UHGV virus genome: UHGV-0390448
From: a virus
Strand: one strand, 5' to 3'
DNA: 64,000 bases
A program made the translations under genes and the position numbers. This document shows, in pieces, positions 24,552 through 63,257 of this stretch (the stretch's first letter is position 1; each line of letters starts with the position of its first letter). The notes under the pieces were generated by a model, which was given only the letters and a program-made list of their open reading frames with translations, had not been told where the DNA came from and searched no databases.

Positions 24552-24575
24552 AAAGCCCCATATGGGGCTTTTCTT
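24552..24575. terminator. Bidirectional terminator between the ParG-like gene and dmt
   Basis: aaaagcccca-ta-tggggctttt: stem flanked by A-tract on one side and T-tract on the other. Confidence 0.7.
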
Positions 24576-26988
24576 AATTAAGCGTGGCTATAATGTCGTT
24601 AGCTATCATTCGCGTTGATGCTTTACAGGATACAGAGCGACGGGATGGCATAGGATACACCTTGAAGCCATTGCCAACGTAAAGTTCGCGAATGTTAGGC
24701 GCTCCACTGTTTGTTATCACAATTTTCGCCCCGCGTCTGTGAGCATCTACCAGCAGCGACACCAGCCGTTGTTGATCTTCAAACCTAAAGCTATGCCCTG
24801 AGTAATTTGTAAATCCGGTAGTGTCGGGCAATGGTTCATAGGGGGGATCGCAGAAAATCACATCATCATTCCCGGCAGCCTCAATTACACCAGCAAAATC
24901 GCCGGACACAAATTCCGAATACTTTGAAATATCGTCAGCCAGGAACGCCTCCATTTCCGCGAGAGGGAAGTAGGGAGATTTCTGCTTTCCATATCCGACG
25001 TTGAACTCTCCTTTACGGTTATAGCGAGTGACGCCATTAAAACAATGACGATTGAGATACAGGAACGCCGCTGCATGGTGAAGAGAATCATAAGCACCAT
25101 TGTTGAATGCATTGCGAACATTCAAAAATGCATCAGCAGAGTTGTAATCCTGAAAATAACGATATGCCAGTGTGATAAGAGAATACCCTTCACGCTGCAA
25201 TGTCTGATAGAAGTTAATCAGGTCACCGTTAATATCATTAAGCAGGTTGTGGCGAAAACCTGCATTCGTAAATACGGAACCGCCACCAACGAATGGTTCT
25301 ATTAACCGCTTGCCGTGTGGCAGATGCTCAAGCACTGTAGGCAACCCTGAGAATTTACCGCCTACCCATTTGAATATTGGGCGCTCATATTCATCCGGAG
25401 TCCGGAGTTTTCTAGTGTAGGTAATGGTATTTATTGTTTTTTGCTGTTTATCCGCCACGGTCGCAAGAATGCGACACCCAATCCATTGCATAACAGGAAC
25501 TGCCATGCTGTTGCCGATCGCTTTGTAACGCGGTCCGTCAGCTGCAAGCATCGCGGCCTCTTCTTCGCTTAAATCTGGATAGTGATTGCGCAGATATGCC
25601 AGTTCATCTGAATTAACTTTTTTACGCTTTTCCGTAGGGATCAACGTATGCCCATCAGGAAAACCTTGAAGTCTCTCACATTCGACAGGGGTAAGACGGC
25701 GGACAGCTACTTCTTCGTTTCTTACTTCATAGCAAACAGCAGTTGGATTTTGAGCCATTAGAGATGGTGAAGTATTCTTAGTTGCTGCATGTTGTGTACC
25801 ACTCATACGCTCAGGAAAAGCCAATGTAACAAGATGCCCATGGCTTTCTTGCTCACGCGCCCGCAATGTACCATGCCCTTCTGACCAAAAACCTGCTCCA
25901 GTGCTGCTAAAAACGGCAAGGTCAGTGGCATCTTTAAAGTCTCTTGCCTTTACTGTCGATGCGGTTTCATCGTCAATATATTCCCCAAATGCCGCCATCC
26001 TGAAACCGTTTACGGCTTTCGTCGATTTCATATCGGGGGACATGCCAGCGTGTAGGCATGGATTTAGGCTTTCGCCACTGATTGCAGCGCCATTTGCAGT
26101 AATGGCGGAAGCGATTTCCTTCTTTTTTCGGCTCGGCGCAATATTCCGGCGCACGCCTTCGAACTCAAAAAGTACCGTTGCGGGATCGAGGTCTGTTCGA
26201 GCACTTGCGACAACAAACACGCGTCGGCGTCGTTGTGCCACTCCGAAGTATTGGGCATCAAGGATTCTCCAGGCCACTTTTCGCTGCGGTCCATAAATAC
26301 AACCACACTGCGGCCACTTTGGAGCATGGCTACCGGTTTTGGCATCCCACCGCCAGAACGCGTTACTTTTTCGTGATTCAGGTCGATCACCAGGTTCGAA
26401 TGGCGCATTTTCTCCAGCCAATCCGGCAAGGAAACATCCGAATGCGTTATCTGCTGATGACAGGACTCCTGGGACATTTTCCCATACGATGACGGCTGGT
26501 TTGAGAAAGGACTCGGCCCGTTTGTCGTCAATTGCATTTGCAAGCTCCACATATTTTAAAGTTAGCGCGCCGCGCTCATCATCAAGCCCACCACGCAAGC
26601 CCGCGATACTGAATGCCTGACAAGGGGTTCCTCCGACGAGAACATCCGGGGCTTCAATTTTTCCAGCCCGGATCTTCTTAGCAAGTTTTGTCATGTCGCC
26701 AAGGTTGGTGACATGAGGCCAGTGGTGCGCAAGAACGGCAGACGGAAAAGGCTCGATTTCAGCAAACCAAGCCGGACGCATACCCAACGGTTCCCAGGCA
26801 ATGCTTGCGGCTTCAATTCCACTGCAAACCGAACCATATCGAAGATTAATGCTCTGCTTCACCGCCAATGGCCTCCACCAGCGAGCTAAACATCGCGGAT
26901 AATTCGCTTGTGAACAGAATGAAGTCAGCATCAAACCGCTGGGCAACATCTTCACGGTCGATGTCATCGTTCTGGTCATAGAGATCAT
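24574..26988 (-). CDS. dmt: Bifunctional DNA methyltransferase, N-terminal C5-cytosine (Dcm-like) fused to C-terminal N6-adenine (Dam-like) domain
   Basis: N-terminal part has CSGIEAASIAW (motif I-like) and GGTPCQAFSIAG (PCQ motif IV); C-terminal part has FVGGGSVF and DPPY. The true start is probably internal, since the ORF as drawn overlaps the upstream gene by about 140 nt. Confidence 0.8.
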   Translation of the reverse strand: MISMTRTMTSTVKMLPSGLMLTSFCSQANYPRCLARWWRPLAVKQSINLRYGSVCSGIEAASIAWEPLGMRPAWFAEIEPFPSAVLAHHWPHVTNLGDMTKLAKKIRAGKIEAPDVLVGGTPCQAFSIAGLRGGLDDERGALTLKYVELANAIDDKRAESFLKPAVIVWENVPGVLSSADNAFGCFLAGLAGENAPFEPGDRPESRKSNAFWRWDAKTGSHAPKWPQCGCIYGPQRKVAWRILDAQYFGVAQRRRRVFVVASARTDLDPATVLFEFEGVRRNIAPSRKKKEIASAITANGAAISGESLNPCLHAGMSPDMKSTKAVNGFRMAAFGEYIDDETASTVKARDFKDATDLAVFSSTGAGFWSEGHGTLRAREQESHGHLVTLAFPERMSGTQHAATKNTSPSLMAQNPTAVCYEVRNEEVAVRRLTPVECERLQGFPDGHTLIPTEKRKKVNSDELAYLRNHYPDLSEEEAAMLAADGPRYKAIGNSMAVPVMQWIGCRILATVADKQQKTINTITYTRKLRTPDEYERPIFKWVGGKFSGLPTVLEHLPHGKRLIEPFVGGGSVFTNAGFRHNLLNDINGDLINFYQTLQREGYSLITLAYRYFQDYNSADAFLNVRNAFNNGAYDSLHHAAAFLYLNRHCFNGVTRYNRKGEFNVGYGKQKSPYFPLAEMEAFLADDISKYSEFVSGDFAGVIEAAGNDDVIFCDPPYEPLPDTTGFTNYSGHSFRFEDQQRLVSLLVDAHRRGAKIVITNSGAPNIRELYVGNGFKVYPMPSRRSVSCKASTRMIANDIIATLN

Positions 26989-34407: not shown

Positions 34408-34442
34408 AGTTATTCAAAATCCTTTTTAATAAACTACATGTT

Positions 34443-34479
34443 ATAAACTACAGGTTATATCATATAACCTGTAGTTTAT
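34443..34479. promoter_or_regulatory. Perfect 37-bp palindrome upstream of the toxin gene (probable autoregulatory operator)
   Basis: ataaactacaggttatat-c-atataacctgtagtttat, 36 nt upstream of the toxin start codon. Confidence 0.6.
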
Positions 34480-34512
34480 ATTTTCAAGGCCATTTTTTAT
34501 TCGATTTAGCAT

Positions 34513-35166
34513 TTAAAGTATCACGGTATCCTCATCAACTTCTTTCCCTGCCAGTGACTTTGGCTGGGAGGCTGCTGCTTTAACCTTCTCATGCCCAATA
34601 ATGGACAGGAACGAGGCCATTATCCCTGCTTTGTTTTCTTTCTCTACCGCTCCTGTCATTTGTTTCAGGTAATCCGCGCTGGCAACATTGTGGTATACCG
34701 TTGCATAGCAGCACAGAATCATCAGGATGTGCTCTGGTCGGATATCTTGCCAGTTAACTCGATAAACCTCTTCACCGTTGCCGTTGTATTCGGTATCGAC
34801 GATAGAGTCGGGGATCTCAAATGCCCCTTTGTTCTTGTCAGGCAGGGATAGCAGCCTTTGTAGTTTCAGCTCCCGGTATCTTTCCATGCCGACAATGATC
34901 GCCGCTCTGCCGTCGGCGTGCCGTGTTTTTAATGTTACCTGACTGGCACCTGTACCGGCTGAAATGGTTGGCGTGATTTCGTCAACCAGCACCTTAAATT
35001 CACTTTTACGCAGCTCGGCAATTGCTGGTGGAATTTTTCGTTTTTGTTCAATAGCAGATGCAGGGAGCGGCTTTACTTTGTCAATTACAAGCGCGCCGTC
35101 TTTCAGGACTGCCGTAGCCATCAGCGGCTTGTTAGTCGAAAGGCTGAATATTGCGATCTTTTGCAT
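34513..35166 (-). CDS. Hypothetical protein
   Basis: 217-aa ORF; no motif recognised. Confidence 0.45.
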   Translation of the reverse strand: MQKIAIFSLSTNKPLMATAVLKDGALVIDKVKPLPASAIEQKRKIPPAIAELRKSEFKVLVDEITPTISAGTGASQVTLKTRHADGRAAIIVGMERYRELKLQRLLSLPDKNKGAFEIPDSIVDTEYNGNGEEVYRVNWQDIRPEHILMILCCYATVYHNVASADYLKQMTGAVEKENKAGIMASFLSIIGHEKVKAAASQPKSLAGKEVDEDTVIL

Positions 35167-37984: not shown

Positions 37985-38165
37985 ATTGGCAGCCTCCTTT
38001 GACTAAGTTAAGGAGCTACCGCGTGAGGTTCCAATCTCAATGGCGGTAGCACTGACTGGGTTGGAACTACCGGCGTCAAAGGGAACCGGCCTGCCTTTCG
38101 GCAGCCCAGCCAGCACTACCATTGATCTCTGAGCTAAACGCTAAGTATGGCTGTGCGATGGCATG

Positions 38166-38235
38166 ACACAAAAAAAGACGCTTTCGGCGTCTGTGTCGCC
38201 TTTGACATTATCCGGGGTTCCAATCCCGGCACCCG
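38166..38235 (-). ncRNA. Candidate c4-like antisense RNA (stem-loop with AUUGGAAC loop plus intrinsic terminator)
   Basis: Minus-strand hairpin CCGGG-AUUGGAAC-CCCGG (38212-38229) followed by terminator AGACGCCGAAAGCGUCU + U7 (38169-38192); complementary GUUCCAA site at 38061-38067 on the same strand upstream of the icd-like SD. Confidence 0.4.
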
Positions 38236-38783
38236 TTTTTCTAAGGTGCCGTAGAAATATACCCCACGATAATGCCTGGGCGCAACAGTCTGTATTTTTA
38301 TGCTTTGGAGGATTTCTTCCGGGCTTGTTTGCAAGCGTAGGCCATTGCTTTAGCTTTCACTTCATCCAGCTTTCCGGTGATCACTTCTTTTCCGAGAGTG
38401 ACAAACCAGTCATAGCAACCGCCAGTGATGTTCTGGATTTGAAAGTTGAGGTAGCGAACGGTCATTTTGACACCCCCAGCGCGAGTAAAGAATGCAGATT
38501 ATCGCGTGAGTGGCGGACAATGAGTGATGGGGAAAGACAGTAGTTGTTCATAGTGTAGTGACTCCTTGCTTTCGGAGCCGCCATCGACTGTTCCACGGTC
38601 TGGTGGCGGCGCAATAAAGGCTGGAACACCGTGAGTCAACGGGGGCTTTTCAGCCACCTATATTGCACCGCCATTGGTATGGCGGCGGCAATCATACGAA
38701 AAACCAAACGGTTTGTCTCAAAAAGTTGACCGGTGTACCAATCGGTTGTGAATGTACAACGGTGAATTTCACAATTCAACTTA

Positions 38784-38800
38784 AAATGTTAGAAAACTAA
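38784..38800. promoter_or_regulatory. Operator-like site at the head of the immI-like operon
   Basis: aaatgttagaaaactaa matches the TGTTAGAAAAYTAA family. Confidence 0.55.
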
Positions 38801-39414
38801 TTTATTAATTCAGTCACCATCTGATACAACGTCATTTCATCAGCATTGTGCCGCCTGAAATCTGCTTTGCCGCCTATTTTTCCATCAGCATGAACAGGGA
38901 CCAACCAGGGGTATTGCTCGCGTATCTCTGCTGGCGCTGCGTGTTGATGGTGCCATTTACACAAAGGGAGAACGTATTTATGCGCGTTCTCTGCCGTTCT
39001 CCCGAAGATGTGGTGCAGGGATACCACAGGGCTATGCTGTCCGTGCATATGGCAGGCAATGCAGGGGAGGGCACCGATGGCAGTTTGTATCCGGCGCTCA
39101 TCTGCTGTGAGTGTTCTGCCTTTCAGGCCGCGTGACGCGCGAGTTTTTTTGACAGGAGCAGAAGCGGCCTTCTCTTTTCTTCGCTGTTCATATTGCTTCG
39201 CTTTTTCAATTTTCTTTTGCCGATATTCAGGCGATGCGGCTTTTTCTCGCGCACGCTGCTGCTGGCGTTGAGCTTGCTGAAGACGTTTTGCCCTTTGTTC
39301 CTCCCGCCATTTCGGATCAGCCAGTTTTTGCAGGGCTTTTTGTGTCTGTTTCTCCCAATAGCTTTGCTTCATAGAAATACCCGGTTTGTCTACATCGCCG
39401 CTATGGTTGATCAA
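38797..39414 (-). CDS. ref: Ref-like HNH endonuclease
   Basis: 205 aa; K/R/Q-rich disordered N-terminal half, C-terminal Cys/His cluster (CIACHMHG ... SLHHIFG ... PLCKWHH); perfect palindromic operator directly upstream. Confidence 0.5.
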   Translation of the reverse strand: MINHSGDVDKPGISMKQSYWEKQTQKALQKLADPKWREEQRAKRLQQAQRQQQRAREKAASPEYRQKKIEKAKQYEQRRKEKAASAPVKKTRASRGLKGRTLTADERRIQTAIGALPCIACHMHGQHSPVVSLHHIFGRTAENAHKYVLPLCKWHHQHAAPAEIREQYPWLVPVHADGKIGGKADFRRHNADEMTLYQMVTELIN

Positions 39415-39415
39415 A

Positions 39416-39449
39416 TGTGTTAGAAAATCAAAATTGATTTTCTAACACA
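39416..39449. promoter_or_regulatory. Perfect 34-bp palindromic double operator
   Basis: tgtgttagaaaatcaa-aa-ttgattttctaacaca, 2 nt upstream of the ref-like start and about 170 nt upstream of the divergent plus-strand genes. Confidence 0.7.
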
Positions 39450-55829: not shown

Positions 55830-56492
55830 TCACTCCACAACAAACCAGTCACAGGCCAGCAGGTCGCCAACTGAAGGCACCCACGGAACAACTACACCTT
55901 GTGCATTTTTTAAGGCGAAATAAGCACCATACGGAACGAGGTCGCCGGGGAAATATCCCTTAATGGCTTCCATTCGTGCCGGGTACTGTCCTTCAGGAAC
56001 CAGCCAGCAGAATTGGTTTTCGCCGTTCCACCCGCGTCGAGCAACTTTCTTGCCATCCTTCAGCCACATCAGCGCGTCAGAAAAGTCGGCTGCTTCAAGG
56101 TCGATTTCTTCTTGTAGAGTAGCGATACCGCCAGCAGAAATAGTTACGTCCCTGGCTGTAATGAATGTCACCCCATTGTGACCTTCAATGCTGAGCAATG
56201 TCCCATTTTCGAAGGCGTCGTTAACCCGGCTATAGCATTTTTCAAATGCTTTCTCTGGCACATAGACCAGATAGCCATTTTCAGCAGTGACGAGATATCC
56301 TCCTATTTGCGGGCGGAATTTTTCCAAGAACACACCATCAACACGAAGCGTCATTCCTTTTGGCTCAACGACTTCGATACTGCCAAAAATGGGCGCATAA
56401 TCTTCGCCGACAATAACAATATCTTTGATTTTCGATGCCCGAATGATGCTGTGGCATTTGTATTTGGGGAACACCTGAAAAGTGCTGACCAT
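55830..56492 (-). CDS. Two-domain protein with C-terminal DUF2829 (Tad2-like) domain
   Basis: C-terminal ~85 aa (FSDALMWLKDGKKVARRGWNGENQF...VPYGAYFALKNAQGVVVPWVPSVGDLLACDWFVVE) matches the DUF2829 signature; N-terminal ~130 aa unassigned. Confidence 0.55.
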   Translation of the reverse strand: MVSTFQVFPKYKCHSIIRASKIKDIVIVGEDYAPIFGSIEVVEPKGMTLRVDGVFLEKFRPQIGGYLVTAENGYLVYVPEKAFEKCYSRVNDAFENGTLLSIEGHNGVTFITARDVTISAGGIATLQEEIDLEAADFSDALMWLKDGKKVARRGWNGENQFCWLVPEGQYPARMEAIKGYFPGDLVPYGAYFALKNAQGVVVPWVPSVGDLLACDWFVVE

Positions 56493-57869: not shown

Positions 57870-57900
57870 ACTGTCTAAAAAGATTGTTAGAAAATTAATT
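57870..57900. promoter_or_regulatory. Tandem operator-like sites between the recombinase gene and the downstream operon
   Basis: actgtctaaaaag + attgttagaaaattaatt; the second is a full match to the TGTTAGAAAAYTAA family. Confidence 0.55.
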
Positions 57901-58928
57901 CAGGAATCCATCAGGCGACTATTTGCACCAACGGATGCCCCGCTACGGCGCAAATATCGCATAAGTGTTTCGGGCTTTTTCCATGTGCCTTCCTGCATGA
58001 TCTCGACCATTGACACCTGTTTCTCAGCCATATCAATTGCCGCACCAACACGCGCACTATGACCTGTCCACGTCCGGTATCTTCCTTTGTTCGGCGTGGC
58101 ATCTCGCTTATTCAGCAATCCCCAGGCATCGCTGAATATTTTCTCCATCGCAGGAGCAGTAAGAGGCGTTGTCGTGATTCTGGCTTTATTACTGCGGTGT
58201 ATTGGCGGGAATAGCACCGCGTCCGGATGTTCACGAAGTCCGGACACCTCCAGCCAGTCGTTTAGCACGGCGGTAGTGCAACGAGAAAGCACCTTATCAA
58301 GTCCGGCGGCGGTCGTGATGGTCTTCGTGTGTGAAATATGCAGCGTTACAGTGTCACCTGTTTGGTCCAGATCTCCGACACGGATGCGCGAGATTTCTGA
58401 CATACGCATCAGGGTATTGTATGCCACGAAGAGAAACGCCCGATTGCGCAGGTCCACCAGCCGCTCGGAACGGGACAGCAATACGTCGAGCAATTTCAGA
58501 TCATCCCACCGCAACGGTATAGCCTGGCCTGTACGCTCGCCTTTTTCCGTTGCCGCTTCGCGCCGGATGCGCCGCATGGCCAGAGATACACTTTTATCGT
58601 CTGACAGCGGCGGTAGGCCGCATTGCGAAAGCAGCATGTTAAGCATGGCATAGTGCTTATCAATGGTGGTCGAAGCCAGATCGGCTTCATGCAACTGGAG
58701 AAGATACTCGCGGGCCATTTCCGGCGTAATCGGGAACCAGGGGCGCTGGCGCGAATTACACCACCGCGCCCAGGAATGAAAGACCAGACGGAGATCACGA
58801 AGTGTATTTGGGGCATAAGCTCCCTGGTCGTTCATGAACTGCATAAAGTTTTTTGCAGCTTCCTGGTATTCGGTGCCAATATCGCGCAGAAAACCGCCAG
58901 AACCGCCGGAGATAACTAGTTCACCCAT
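57900..58928 (-). CDS. Cre-family tyrosine recombinase (Dre-like)
   Basis: 342 aa, collinear with P1 Cre (WFP..PE..R.YLL.L, VSL.MRRIR, IRNLAF..AYNTL.R..EI.RIRV.D, W.GHSARVGAA.DMA, EIMQ.G.W, .Y.R.); about 45-50 percent identity by eye; catalytic R/H/R/W/Y positions conserved. Confidence 0.9.
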   Translation of the reverse strand: MGELVISGGSGGFLRDIGTEYQEAAKNFMQFMNDQGAYAPNTLRDLRLVFHSWARWCNSRQRPWFPITPEMAREYLLQLHEADLASTTIDKHYAMLNMLLSQCGLPPLSDDKSVSLAMRRIRREAATEKGERTGQAIPLRWDDLKLLDVLLSRSERLVDLRNRAFLFVAYNTLMRMSEISRIRVGDLDQTGDTVTLHISHTKTITTAAGLDKVLSRCTTAVLNDWLEVSGLREHPDAVLFPPIHRSNKARITTTPLTAPAMEKIFSDAWGLLNKRDATPNKGRYRTWTGHSARVGAAIDMAEKQVSMVEIMQEGTWKKPETLMRYLRRSGASVGANSRLMDS

Positions 58929-59079
58929 GAAACTATTAAACCTCTATATACAGATGACGCTACGTGAAAAATAGAAAACTGACAGGGTAGTTATAAGTTA
59001 ATTTTCAAAATTCAAGCCTTTGATTCGAGGCATGATTTTTCATCCTTGTCAATACTACCTGTTTACTGGAGATTATAGC

Positions 59080-59113
59080 CTAACTTTAAATAATGCCAAT
59101 TATTTAAAGTTAG
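59080..59113. other. lox-type recombination site (rox-like): 13-bp inverted arms around an 8-bp spacer
   Basis: cTAACTTTAAATA-ATGCCAAT-TATTTAAAGTTAg; arms are perfect inverted repeats and share TAACTT...ATA with loxP arms; the 32-bp core equals the rox sequence as I recall it; 150 bp upstream of the recombinase gene. Confidence 0.85.
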
Positions 59114-59194
59114 AAATCGGGACTTTTTTCCCAAAAAAACACCGGCAAGATCACTTCGCAAATCTGTCAGCCATGCGGTAGCCGTTTCCTGGTT

Positions 59195-59297
59195 ACATTT
59201 TCTAATAGGAACAATCAAAAAAAAGCGGTTTTATCCTTTACTCACCTTGTTATTCAGCATAAATTTGTCACAGGACTTTTATGTTAGAAAACTAAAT
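59195..59297. promoter_or_regulatory. Two operator-like sites upstream of the 59310 ORF
   Basis: acattttctaatagg (59195-59209, inverted) and ttatgttagaaaactaaat (59279-59297). Confidence 0.55.
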
Positions 59298-59309: not shown

Positions 59310-60347
59310 ATGAGTAAGAAGTCGATCGAGAATGAGTACAAACGGTTCCTGCAAACCGCTGAACGGTGGAAAGAGCTGGTGGTCGCAAACTCTGTTTTCC
59401 ATGATACCAGTTACGTTGGCGAGGAATTTCGCCATGTTGCATTAACACATGATCCGGCTGTATTAGAAGAAGCTGAAAAATGCATAGCCGAATGGAAAGC
59501 CTTTGTTGATCTGTGTCGCAAGGATGATGACAAAGCCTCAAACATTGTTGAGTCGGTTTATTTACCGATCCCATTCATTGTTGAGGATACTAATCAGAGT
59601 ACGCATATCGTTATGCAAAGCGCAACCACAACGAGAACATTTACGCGCGAAGACCTGCTGAAAAAATACGATAAAACTATAAAGAAAAGCATGAAAAACA
59701 GGATCTTTTCACAGGTTGTCGGTGCGCTTGAAGAAGAACGCAGATTCTTCGCCGCAGAACGTGAGGGCGAGGTATACCGCGCAAGAAAAGAAGGTTATAC
59801 CGATGTGGTGATTACCACCAATATCGAGGGCAACAATGGACTTTCACGCTTCAGAGTGGGTACGCACGGTGCGCTGATCTTTGCAAAAAAAGCAAACACA
59901 GAGATTCCCGTTGTTAACAACGTTGGTGAGCGCCGCACCCTTACCATTTACACTGGCATTAAACCGCTTCCGTGCGGACTTCTCGGCGAATTTGACCTTT
60001 ATCGGGTTCGTGACCTGGAAAAGCAGCAGCCAAGCTATGTCGTGAAGTCATATATCCTGAGAAACATTGATATCCGCAATCAGAGTTTAAAAAACAAATC
60101 AGAGAAAATGCTGTCCGAAGCCGATCCAGCCATACACCAGATCGTTAGCCGGAAAATTCAAGAAGCTAAAGATGCAATGGCAAGGCTGGATAAAATGGAC
60201 CTGGAACTACTGGAAGTTATGATTGCCTCCGGCGATGACCTGACAGGCATCCGCCTTACTGAAGCCAGGAAAAAATACGGTAAAAGCGTTGAAGAACGCT
60301 ATGGGTACACATTCACACAAACGATGTACGCGGCAAAACTCTGGTAA
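59310..60347 (+). CDS. Hypothetical protein in the position of the immunity repressor (between lox-like site and pacB)
   Basis: 345 aa from ATG 59310 (RBS AGTAGGA); operator-like sites in its 5-prime region. I could not recognise similarity to P1 C1, so the repressor assignment is positional only. Confidence 0.4.
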   Translation: MSKKSIENEYKRFLQTAERWKELVVANSVFHDTSYVGEEFRHVALTHDPAVLEEAEKCIAEWKAFVDLCRKDDDKASNIVESVYLPIPFIVEDTNQSTHIVMQSATTTRTFTREDLLKKYDKTIKKSMKNRIFSQVVGALEEERRFFAAEREGEVYRARKEGYTDVVITTNIEGNNGLSRFRVGTHGALIFAKKANTEIPVVNNVGERRTLTIYTGIKPLPCGLLGEFDLYRVRDLEKQQPSYVVKSYILRNIDIRNQSLKNKSEKMLSEADPAIHQIVSRKIQEAKDAMARLDKMDLELLEVMIASGDDLTGIRLTEARKKYGKSVEERYGYTFTQTMYAAKLW

Positions 60348-60364: not shown

Positions 60365-60386
60365 GCCCCGAATCGCCGGGGCTTTT
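60365..60386 (+). terminator. Terminator between the convergent 59310 ORF and pacB
   Basis: gccccg-aatcgc-cggggc followed by tttt. Confidence 0.6.
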
Positions 60387-61893
60387 AAATGTCAATATCA
60401 GGAATATCCACTTCTGCCAACACCTGATCGCGGAATGTTGCTAGTTCTGCGCCAATGTCTTCATTAGCAGGCACGTAATCCACCAGCATAGTGAAGCAGT
60501 AGGTATCCCATCTGTCCGGCGACTTGATGTTTAACTTCTGCCGCATGTGCTCCTTGCGCATCATCGCCACCTTCCCTTCTTCGTTAAGCATATACGGGAT
60601 TTTTGATGCCTGATCGGCAGTTTTGGGGTCACTATCGATACGCATACGCCCTGATTTAATGGCATCCCCTGCCATAATATTGGCGTAAGCACGCTGATTG
60701 ACAAAGCGTTCTCTGTCTCTTAGCGCAAACATAGGTTTACCCCAACGGATGCGAACGGGATTAGCACCACGGCGGACAAGCTGCGCACACGTATCTGAAC
60801 CAAAGCCATCAGCATCCACAGCAATGGTGATGTTCGGGTATTTATCAGGAGTGCATTCGTTATAGATAAAGTCGGCAAAAGCCAACGGGTCCATAGTGCC
60901 TGGCATCTCCAGTATCTTAAAGTTCACAACACGTCGTTTCTCACGATAACCGGATACTTTGCATATATTGAGCACCGATTTGTCGCGACCATTACCGACG
61001 TCAGCGGTCGCTACCCAGCCCCAATCTTTCTCCAGCAACACTTTACGCCGTGCGGCGCGGTCGCACTCATCACGACCAAGCAAATACCCGTTAATTGCAC
61101 GCGGGAACTGGCCCAGCACCTTAACCATGTACTCCAGCGAATCCCTGCCGCCGTACTCCAGCAATTTCTCACGAATAAAGCTCGGTTCAACGAATGGAGA
61201 TTCTTCAGAGTTAAGGACTATTGCCGTCCAGACTCCTTCCGGATTGCCTTCTGCCTTTGCCCTTGAATGGTGGGATTCATAAAAGTAACCGCTTGGACGC
61301 GTAGGCTGGGAAAGCATGAGCATACGGTTATCTTTCTGCGTTAACGCCCCCGTCATGACGTTAATCGCCTTATCTGATATGCCCGATGCTTCATCAAGGA
61401 TTAGCAGTAAATGCTCCGCGTGCTCCCCCGCCAGTGCCTCTTCGTTACCGAGTCGATAACCTTTACAGAGCACTTCCCATATCCCTTTACGGGAACGCTC
61501 ATAAAACATGGTGTCAGACAGGACAAAATAGGTCTGTAACCAGCCGTGGCGCTTAACAGCATTCGCCCAAAACTGTTTCACGTATTTGAATACGCCTGTT
61601 TTTACCTGGCCTATTTTGTTCGCAACAATAATGACGCGGGCGTCGGGGAACAGGATCATAAAAATTAGTAGCAACATCGCGGTAAGGGACGACTTACCCG
61701 TTCCGTGTCCGGACGTAACGGTCGTCCTGCTCCCCGTCTCCTGCACTGACTGAATGATCTGCTGCTGCTGGTGGGAGGGGAACATCCCAAAAATATCGAC
61801 AACCGCCTGGGTAAAGTTGTATCGATACCTGATAACCATATCGCGCCAACGTGGATCACTGGTGACGCACTTAATCTTACGACCACCAGCCAT
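60385..61893 (-). CDS. pacB: Terminase large subunit (PacB-like)
   Basis: 502 aa; N-terminal ATPase with Walker A-like SGHGTGKSS and Walker B LLLILDEA, C-terminal RNaseH-like nuclease region with conserved acidic residues; start overlaps the upstream stop (TAATG). Confidence 0.8.
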   Translation of the reverse strand: MAGGRKIKCVTSDPRWRDMVIRYRYNFTQAVVDIFGMFPSHQQQQIIQSVQETGSRTTVTSGHGTGKSSLTAMLLLIFMILFPDARVIIVANKIGQVKTGVFKYVKQFWANAVKRHGWLQTYFVLSDTMFYERSRKGIWEVLCKGYRLGNEEALAGEHAEHLLLILDEASGISDKAINVMTGALTQKDNRMLMLSQPTRPSGYFYESHHSRAKAEGNPEGVWTAIVLNSEESPFVEPSFIREKLLEYGGRDSLEYMVKVLGQFPRAINGYLLGRDECDRAARRKVLLEKDWGWVATADVGNGRDKSVLNICKVSGYREKRRVVNFKILEMPGTMDPLAFADFIYNECTPDKYPNITIAVDADGFGSDTCAQLVRRGANPVRIRWGKPMFALRDRERFVNQRAYANIMAGDAIKSGRMRIDSDPKTADQASKIPYMLNEEGKVAMMRKEHMRQKLNIKSPDRWDTYCFTMLVDYVPANEDIGAELATFRDQVLAEVDIPDIDI

Positions 61894-63257
61894 TAGTCAT
61901 CCTCCGGCTGGTCTATCGCAATCTCGTCATCTACAGCATCAAAACCGGTATCCCCCGCGTCATAATCACCGTAGATATCAGCCGTGGCGGAAGGGTCTAT
62001 ATTCAGGTCTTCATCATTGGCCTCAAATTCACCGGCTTTACGTTCTCCGTTCCGGTCGTAATCCCCCATCCCAAGCCTATCAACGATTTTCGCTACTTCA
62101 GCCCGGCGTTGTGCAAGCCATTGTGGGAGTCCAGCTTGTTGCTCGGCAAACTGCTTCGCCTCTTTATCCAGTTGCTCATCATCAACATCGTTAACGTCAG
62201 AAACCGGAGGCTCCAGAAGTGAGATCGCTTTTGCCGCTCGTGCCGCCAGGATAGCCGGGACACTGACGCCCTGCCGCTCGATATATTCAGCAACGCCTAT
62301 ATCGTCCAGCTCCTCGCGCTCACGCATACGTATAGCGGCGGCGATAACTCTGGCGGCGCGTGCGTCAGCGCCAATGCGATACTCAATCTCTTTGCCACGC
62401 TGCTCGGCTTGCAGGCGAGTAATCGCCAGTTTTTCTCTGGCCTCAGCCTCTCTGAATGCCTGCTGGCGCGCGCCCTGCGCAAGTTTTTCATCCCCCTGGC
62501 GTAGCTTCTGCTCGGTCTGGTAGATGGCAGCCAACCTACTGATAAAGTCATTCATGTAGTAGGCCGCATCGCTTATTAGGCCGAGAAGACGCTGCCCTGG
62601 GTGCATTCCCTCTGGCTGTGTATCGCCGAGGGCGTCAATCTCTTCCTGTAGTCGTTCCGCTTCCTGGTCAACGATGGCCTGATACTGAATTGCTCGTTCC
62701 TGCGCCATCTGTATCGCAAGTCGTAAATGTTCAGTCGCGCCGTTCTTCATCATCTCACGGGCGACGTTGGTGGCAGGCAAAGTGGCGCTTTGAGCTGATG
62801 AGTCAGGGATCATTTGCAATGATCCCTTGTTTCGTTGGGCTTTTTCGCTGCTTTTAGGGATCATTTCCCCCATTTCATCACAAAATGATCCCCTTACATC
62901 CTTGTGTATCTTATTGTTATTACTTGGCTTTTCTTTGTGATCCGCATTTTGTTTTTGCGGCATGGCGCGGAATCGTCCACCAGCTAACGATTTGTCAGTT
63001 TTTGTAAATTCTGTGCTTTTATCAGCCTTTTTTTGCTCTTTTTTTGGGCTTGTGGCGCTACTTTTTGCGCGCTGTTTTGTACTTTTCCCGGCAGCCTTAG
63101 CTTTCGCTTTAACCTCGTTTTTTTTCATATTGAGATGCTTTCTGGCGGTGTTAAAGCTGAGGTCATGCTGCTCGCAATATTCTTTTATGGTGATCCCGGT
63201 TTCTTCTCTTAACTCCAGGAACTTAGCTCGATGCGCTTCCCAGTTAATTAACGTCAT
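61893..63257 (-). CDS. pacA: Terminase small subunit-like protein (PacA-like) containing the candidate pac site
   Basis: 454 aa, N-terminal HTH-like region, immediately upstream of and translationally coupled to the large-subunit gene; GATC-heptamer cluster inside the coding sequence. Confidence 0.6.
   Translation of the reverse strand: MTLINWEAHRAKFLELREETGITIKEYCEQHDLSFNTARKHLNMKKNEVKAKAKAAGKSTKQRAKSSATSPKKEQKKADKSTEFTKTDKSLAGGRFRAMPQKQNADHKEKPSNNNKIHKDVRGSFCDEMGEMIPKSSEKAQRNKGSLQMIPDSSAQSATLPATNVAREMMKNGATEHLRLAIQMAQERAIQYQAIVDQEAERLQEEIDALGDTQPEGMHPGQRLLGLISDAAYYMNDFISRLAAIYQTEQKLRQGDEKLAQGARQQAFREAEAREKLAITRLQAEQRGKEIEYRIGADARAARVIAAAIRMREREELDDIGVAEYIERQGVSVPAILAARAAKAISLLEPPVSDVNDVDDEQLDKEAKQFAEQQAGLPQWLAQRRAEVAKIVDRLGMGDYDRNGERKAGEFEANDEDLNIDPSATADIYGDYDAGDTGFDAVDDEIAIDQPEDD
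62805..62946. other. Candidate pac site: five GATC sites in TGATCC(C)/GGGATCA heptamers as inverted pairs
   Basis: agggatcatt-tgc-aatgatccct (62805-62827), tagggatcattt ... aaatgatcccct (62855-62894), tgtgatccgc (62937-62946); analogous to the hexanucleotide/Dam-site architecture of the P1 pac site. Confidence 0.5.

Follow-up and report, generated by a model that had tools for sequence, protein, structure and literature searches.

What is the perfect 34-bp inverted repeat that lies between a gene for a Cre-family recombinase and a divergently oriented prophage repressor gene in the viral genome UHGV-0390448, and what does it reveal about the element that carries it? The stretch analyzed here (64,000 nucleotides, hereafter the window) had been given an initial annotation from its letters only, which proposed a lox-type recombination site with a core identical to rox, the site on which Dre, the recombinase of phage D6, acts; the Dre/rox system of this phage was reportedly described by Sauer and McDermott in 2004. 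Based on comparisons of the site, of the adjoining protein and of the whole window with D6, P1 and a large set of relatives, we assign a probability of about 0.93 to the reading that positions 59080-59113 hold the rox site of a D6-like Escherichia plasmid prophage and that the adjoining gene encodes a Dre-type recombinase. The features on which this reading is built are collected in Table 1.

Table 1. Features of the window discussed in the text, with their coordinates, strand and the basis of each assignment.
Feature	Coordinates	Strand	Basis
Rep3-type plasmid initiator	10312-11196	+	Segment not alignable with D6 DNA
C4 antisense RNA (77 bits)	38039-38126	-	Rfam
isrK (63 bits)	38171-38249	-	Rfam
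dre orthologue, 342-aa Cre-type tyrosine recombinase	57900-58928	-	Dre/Cre alignment, Pfam, catalytic residues
Putative sigma-70 promoter of dre	59072-59099	-	11 of 12 consensus positions, TTGGCA-16-TATAAT
Extended palindrome, 15+4+15	59080-59113	.	Repeat search, comparison with D6
rox core, 32 bp	59081-59112	.	Identity with published roxP and annotated D6 rox
Hypervariable segment directly right of rox	59114-59215	.	Homology with D6 and relatives breaks
c1 prophage repressor homologue, divergent from dre	59310-60347	+	80% identical to D6 C1, same position
pacB	60385-61893	-	Synteny with D6
pacA	61893-63257	-	Synteny with D6

The rox site and its recombinase

Direct reading of the window gives the palindrome as CTAACTTTAAATAATGCCAATTATTTAAAGTTAG, a perfect inverted repeat, and a repeat search resolves it into two fully (100%) complementary arms of 15 nt (59080-59094 and 59099-59113), which flank GCCA (59095-59098). 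The outermost C/G pair sets this lineage apart, as the base that follows the right arm is G here and T in D6, and it is this difference that extends the palindrome to 15 nt per arm. The 32 bp inside this pair correspond letter for letter to the wild-type roxP, 5'-TAACTTTAAATAATGCCAATTATTTAAAGTTA-3' (PMC4777119), and to the stretch annotated in the immC record of D6 (AY753669) as "region of crossover (rox) site for Dre recombinase", so that the identity of the core with rox, which the initial annotation had put forward, is borne out by both sources. Judged by its letters, the core is an exact copy of the known rox, the Dre target of phage D6. It is composed of a left arm TAACTTTAAATA (59081-59092), a central 8 bp ATGCCAAT (59093-59100) and a right arm TATTTAAAGTTA (59101-59112). 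In the literature, rox is described as two 14-bp repeats with a 4-bp spacer (PMC4777119), and the core shows precisely this organization, with 14-bp inverted repeats around GCCA. The partition into 13-bp arms and an 8-bp spacer proposed earlier is valid as a loxP-style parse, and its spacer corresponds to the functional crossover region inferred by experiment (PMC4777119), but both arms of the palindrome reach 2 nt further inward, and the asymmetry is limited to GCCA. The arms do share TAACTT and ATA with loxP, as had been claimed; this can be read directly from the P1 lox arms and is also described in PMC4777119. The site as a whole is distinct from loxP (arms ATAACTTCGTATA, spacer ATGTATGC), as only 9 of 13 arm positions and 3 of 8 spacer positions match by direct reading.

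The gene next to the site starts 151 bp away from it (the earlier estimate was 150 bp) and encodes a protein identical to WP_068862850.1, a RefSeq entry from the E. coli plasmid pMUB-MIN14-1. The alignment to Dre and Cre that had been recommended as a check identifies it as a Dre orthologue: it is identical to D6 Dre at 322 of 342 positions (94%), without gaps and at equal length, versus 41% identity to P1 Cre. In a sequence search, Cre structures were matched over residues 22-341 (E 4e-72), and Pfam recognizes the SAM-like N-terminal domain Phage_int_SAM_1 (PF02899) and the catalytic domain Phage_integrase (PF00589). All six catalytic residues, the conservation of which had also been asserted, are found by alignment, with R175, K202, H290, R293, W316 and Y325 facing R173, K201, H289, R292, W315 and Y324 of Cre, and the same positions are given for Dre in PMC4777119. 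Karimova et al. have found that the exchanges K43R, R259P and G263K, which introduce the residues of Dre and Panto, allow Cre to recombine rox (PMC4957104). The corresponding residues R44, P259 and K263 are common to the window protein, Dre and the protein of plasmid pK91, where Cre has K43, R259 and G263, and they support the earlier view of a recombinase that is heterospecific with respect to Cre. The 20 substitutions relative to Dre (positions 2-30, 58-102, 217, 227, 270, 329 and 331) are mostly found in the first 30 residues and in the stretch 58-102, and none of them touches a catalytic or specificity residue. The protein thus has the catalytic set, the full-length identity together with the two-domain architecture of Cre, and the specificity residues of a Dre orthologue. 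The same rox sequence is recombined by D6 Dre and not by Cre (PMC4777119, PMC4957104), and we infer that the 94%-identical recombinase of the window would be active on the adjacent rox.

The 32-mer occurs only once in the 64-kb window, beside the Dre-type gene, and was never recovered in 100 shuffles, even with up to three mismatches allowed. A single rox per window fits a site for resolution or cyclization. Perfect inverted repeats with arms of at least 13 nt and a gap of at most 10 nt amount to three in the 64 kb and were absent from 20 shuffles. Elsewhere in the window, we observed a perfect 19+1+19 palindrome, TATAAACTACAGGTTATAT C ATATAACCTGTAGTTTATA (34442-34480), which is the longest inverted repeat of the window and lies upstream of a mat-like ORF (34513-35166, minus strand), where it is probably an operator. 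A perfect 16+2+16 palindrome of 34 bp, TGTGTTAGAAAATCAA AA TTGATTTTCTAACACA (39416-39449), is flanked by a ref-like ORF (38797-39414, minus strand) on one side and by rightward ORFs on the other.

A D6-like phage-plasmid

The aligned part of the window follows the complete D6 genome in one collinear path by local BLAST, running from 36.2 kb of the D6 record to its end and on to 4.85 kb, the record having been opened in the middle of rox. In total, 46,352 of the 64,000 bases (72% of the window) could be aligned, in blocks of 73-98% identity, and several segments, including the Rep gene region, appear to be replaced. An identity of only 73-98% over 46 of 64 kb characterizes a D6-like phage-plasmid and not D6 itself, so that from the earlier alternative of "D6 or a close relative" only the relative is retained. 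By these comparisons, the element is a separate lineage of the D6 group. The gene order dut-orf-orf-dre-rox-c1-pacB-pacA is the same as in D6, and collinear modules for phage morphogenesis, immunity and plasmid maintenance are all present, as in D6-like plasmid prophages of the P1 family. Among them, the segment encoding the C4 antisense RNA and isrK is a P1-type immI control region beside icd/ant-like genes, and the replication module seems to have been exchanged or to have diverged strongly, given that the segment with the Rep3-type initiator could not be aligned with D6.

The window and D6 (AY753669, MF356679) share the 32-bp site, the length of 342 aa and the catalytic and specificity residues of the recombinase, as well as the order dre-rox-c1-pacB-pacA and a promoter-like element over the site (see below), and the gap between site and gene is 152 bp in D6 versus 151 bp here. 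They differ by the 20 substitutions in the recombinase, by the 100 bp to the right of the site, which are unrelated, and by a C1 protein that is only 80% identical. With P1 Cre/loxP, the window has in common a Cre-type enzyme with the same active site, lox-type inverted arms around an asymmetric center, the location of the site, with the recombinase gene on one side and the c1/pac region on the other, and the same presumed roles; in P1, however, the cra gene lies between lox and cre, where the window has only the gap of 151 bp. Two further observations concern the gene content relative to D6. An ORF of 220 aa (55830-56492, minus strand) has at its C terminus a domain resembling Tad2 (Thoeris anti-defence 2; PF11195, E 1.6e-22) and is longer than the counterpart region of D6, which aligns only in part. 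A single ORF of 804 aa (24574-26988, minus strand) fuses a C5-cytosine methyltransferase domain to a D12-class N6-adenine methyltransferase domain, and the same domains are annotated in D6 as two genes, D6_64 and D6_63.

The nearest records are circular, non-mobilizable plasmids of 89-94 kb from E. coli and E. marmotae, which are 96-99% identical to the window over most of the regions tested. The Dre-type region was found in 193 plasmid records. Among 5,426 complete E. coli genomes, 155 contain it, and it is nearly always plasmid-borne. Species-representative genomes yielded no close Dre orthologue, only relatives at 42-48% identity in Pantoea, Erwinia and Rahnella, which we used as an outgroup only. 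Of the 160 matching places in the complete E. coli genomes, five are chromosomal, and the enzyme carries the generic annotation "tyrosine-type recombinase/integrase". Both would be in line with an attP-like site serving the integration of the element into a chromosome, instead of the resolution or cyclization of a plasmid. We regard this as extremely improbable, since the other 155 places lie on plasmids of about 90 kb, since the site is a simple and symmetric lox-type site for which the repeat search detected neither arm-type sites nor accessory repeats in the surroundings, and since the enzyme is an orthologue of Cre and Dre and not of the lambda-Int type with an arm-binding domain.

Conservation and natural variation of rox

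The site is part of a 42-bp island (rox and 10 bp on the dre side) that is perfectly conserved with D6; the rest of this intergenic region is 86% identical and partly unalignable. In order to follow its variation, we compared 44 loci (the window, D6, 9 plasmids and 33 IMG/VR contigs) that were retrieved by homology and not by the sequence of the site, and whose recombinases are 70-100% identical to that of the window; some of them are clonal or closely related plasmids, so that the following counts do not represent independent events. All 44 loci have the same left 12-bp arm, TAACTTTAAATA, and the right arm is either TATTTAAAGTTA or TATCTAAAGTTA, which reflects a single T/C polymorphism. The central 8 bp read ATGCCAAT in 37 loci, ATACTAAT and ACTCCAAT in two loci each, and ATGCCACT, ATCCCCAT and ATGCTAAT in one locus each. 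Central positions 1 and 8 are constant throughout the 44 loci, all changes being confined to positions 2-7, as is expected for arms bound by protein that surround a homology-sensing crossover region of 6 bp. Mutagenesis by Chuang et al. has indicated that the crossover region of rox extends into the first base of each repeat, with a length nearer to that of loxP (PMC4777119). The natural variants provide independent support for such a loxP-like crossover region of 6 bp, in agreement with the mutagenesis. Further copies of the same alleles were recovered when IMG/VR and metagenomes were scanned by pattern; as the invariance of the arms is true by construction in loci found in this way, the statistics on the arms and on the -10 element (see below) are drawn from the 44 homology loci only.

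The exact conservation of the site across relatives with diverged flanks also bears on the trivial explanation of a chance palindrome or an intrinsic terminator between the divergent genes, for which the AT-rich and intergenic nature of the region could be invoked. Comparable palindromes were absent from the shuffles, the stem lacks both a G+C-rich part and a T-run, and a terminator scan made no call. With the conservation data and the shuffle statistics, this explanation is refuted, and we leave it hardly any probability.

The more distant relatives of the recombinase (55% identical in IMG/VR, 42-48% in Pantoea, Erwinia and Rahnella) are accompanied by pox-like sites that display symmetric changes in both arms, e.g., TAACTTTATATA...TATATAAAGTTA, which fits half-sites that co-evolve with the protein. 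The Panto/pox system and its kin on plasmids of these three genera (PMC4957104) have Cre-type recombinases that share 42-48% identity with the window protein. They resemble the rox system in that their lox-type sites are mostly located about 190-400 bp upstream of the gene and have arms only 1-2 bases away from rox (e.g., TAACTTTATATA), and Panto was reported to recombine rox (Karimova et al., 2016; PMC4957104). They differ from it by the symmetry of these arm changes, by their centers, hosts and replicons, and by GGATC-rich flanks without a TATAAT abutting the arm. A site found on plasmid pC3_3 of Pantoea sp. C3 (locus L065, position 2746) has exact loxP-type 12-bp arms (TAACTTCGTATA / TATACGAAGTTA) with a different center, ATTATACT; the recombinase encoded downstream of it shares 44% identity with the window protein. 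Five metagenome contigs (L121/L137, L130/L138 and L133) carry the 12-bp arms of rox (TAACTTTAAATA) around the unrelated centers AGCTGTAC, AGCCGGCA and CATTGATG. No Dre homologue was found in their stored flanks, and these sites, which were left out of the counts, may belong to other lox-type systems or be due to chance.

The conservation ends abruptly on one side. Directly beyond the right end of rox, homology to D6 and to the other relatives is lost, and it is regained about 100 bp further on, near the upstream region of c1. The group of IncY/IncFIB resistance plasmids at about 79% identity (e.g., S. Typhi pK91) can be aligned only up to position 59115 of the window. Moreover, the classes of flanks are found in several combinations, as D6-type left flanks are associated with two right flanks, and so are IncY-type left flanks. 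This suggests that rox could be a mosaic junction at which, or near which, exchange has occurred, although the adjoining immunity region is variable anyway. The IncY/IncFIB resistance plasmids (L099, which is pK91, and L105-L107) encode a Dre-type recombinase of about 88% identity together with a rox variant and are phage-plasmid remnants with IS26 beside or inside the pac/c1 region; one of these resistance plasmids is a 168-kb NDM-5 cointegrate.

A promoter-like element over rox and the possible roles of the system

The site overlaps with a putative promoter facing dre. Its -35 element TTGGCA (59099-59094) consists of the center of rox plus one base on each side, its 16-nt spacer is made of most of the dre-proximal (left) arm and a linker of 3 nt, and its -10 element TATAAT (59077-59072) lies 3 bp outside the arm. 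This is the only promoter-like match of at least 11 of 12 positions in the 64-kb window; shuffled sequences have about one per window, at random positions. On the dre strand of the 151-bp gap, the promoter scan revealed no further promoter-like match. In P1, by contrast, the annotated cre promoters are located 104-424 bp from lox without overlapping it. Of the 44 homology loci, 43 have TATAAT at this very offset and the remaining one has TATGAT, with the 3-nt linker and the bases beyond being variable. TATAAT does not abut the arm in the relatives at 55% and at 42-48% identity. In the variant central alleles, direct reading gives the -35 element only 3-5 of 6 consensus positions, so that any promoter would differ in strength between the alleles.

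Could the palindrome then be chiefly a transcriptional control element, i.e., an operator or core promoter of dre or of the divergent c1 to which a regulator binds, with recombination being secondary or absent in this lineage? The overlap of an 11/12 promoter with rox, the retention of its -10 element in 43 of 44 relatives and the lack of another match on the dre strand of the gap all speak in favor of this idea. Yet, the same 32 bp are an experimentally validated substrate of Dre (PMC4777119, PMC4957104), and the -35 element sits in the naturally variable central bases, where variants keep 3-5 of 6 positions, which argues for selection acting on the arms and the -10 element and not on the promoter as a whole. 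A role as promoter is, besides, compatible with a role in recombination and no true alternative to it, and we consider a site that is mainly regulatory to be quite unlikely. As for c1, the operator consensus of the P1 C1 repressor (ATTGCTCTAATAAATTT) has no match with up to three mismatches anywhere in the window.

Returning to a rox site that also overlaps a promoter, its architecture suggests that Dre bound at rox might repress its own gene. Nothing relevant on an autoregulation of Dre was found in the searchable literature, the scope of which does not include the original D6 papers. We tentatively propose, as a joint idea that we hold to be possible at rather less than even odds, that in the Dre clade rox doubles as the core promoter of dre, that occupancy by Dre shuts off dre, and that the central alleles ATGCCAAT, ATACTAAT, ACTCCAAT, ATGCTAAT, ATCCCCAT and ATGCCACT represent mutually incompatible classes of rox.

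The Cre/lox system of P1 resolves multimers and circularizes the infecting DNA. Dre/rox functionally follows the paradigm of Cre/loxP (PMC4777119, PMC4957104). By analogy, each inverted arm would be bound by one monomer of the recombinase, and two occupied sites would synapse as a tetramer. Tyr325 would then cut at the edges of the crossover region of about 6 bp within the central ATGCCAAT, strand exchange would proceed via a Holliday junction, and the asymmetric GCCA center would set the direction of the site. In the prophage state, dimers and multimers of the plasmid would be resolved to monomers, ensuring a stable segregation of the low-copy prophage, and upon infection terminally redundant linear DNA would be circularized when rox is present at both ends. 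Both roles are likely, as transferred from P1, a transfer which is partly based on a statement in a preprint (bioRxiv 10.1101/2020.11.09.375378). Within pacA, direct reading of about 140 bp (62808-62946) shows five TGATCC/GGATCA hexamers, each of them with a GATC Dam site, approximately 3.7 kb from rox. The hexamer of P1 pac is TGATCA/G, unlike that of the window. By its P1-pac-like arrangement, we infer the cluster to be a candidate pac site, and its distance of about 3.7 kb from rox is consistent with a role of the site in circularization.

The Dre/rox feature as such is already known, as are D6-like phage-plasmids, and the exact recombinase protein is already present in RefSeq. The value of the site for annotation lies in marking the window as a phage-plasmid of the D6 group and in fixing the conventional origin of its genome. 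Dre/rox has been a standard tool of genome engineering since 2004, and the natural central alleles constitute naturally selected heterotypic rox spacers for its users. Together with these alleles, the overlap with a promoter offers modest leads beyond the known system. The strong promoter-like element that overlaps the native site may explain how Dre is maintained at low levels in the prophage. If the joint proposal holds true, the Dre clade would possess an occupancy-based autoregulation of dre that is absent from P1 Cre/loxP, and the allele classes would keep co-resident phage-plasmids of the D6 type and the IncY type from fusing, while at the same time altering the strength of the promoter.
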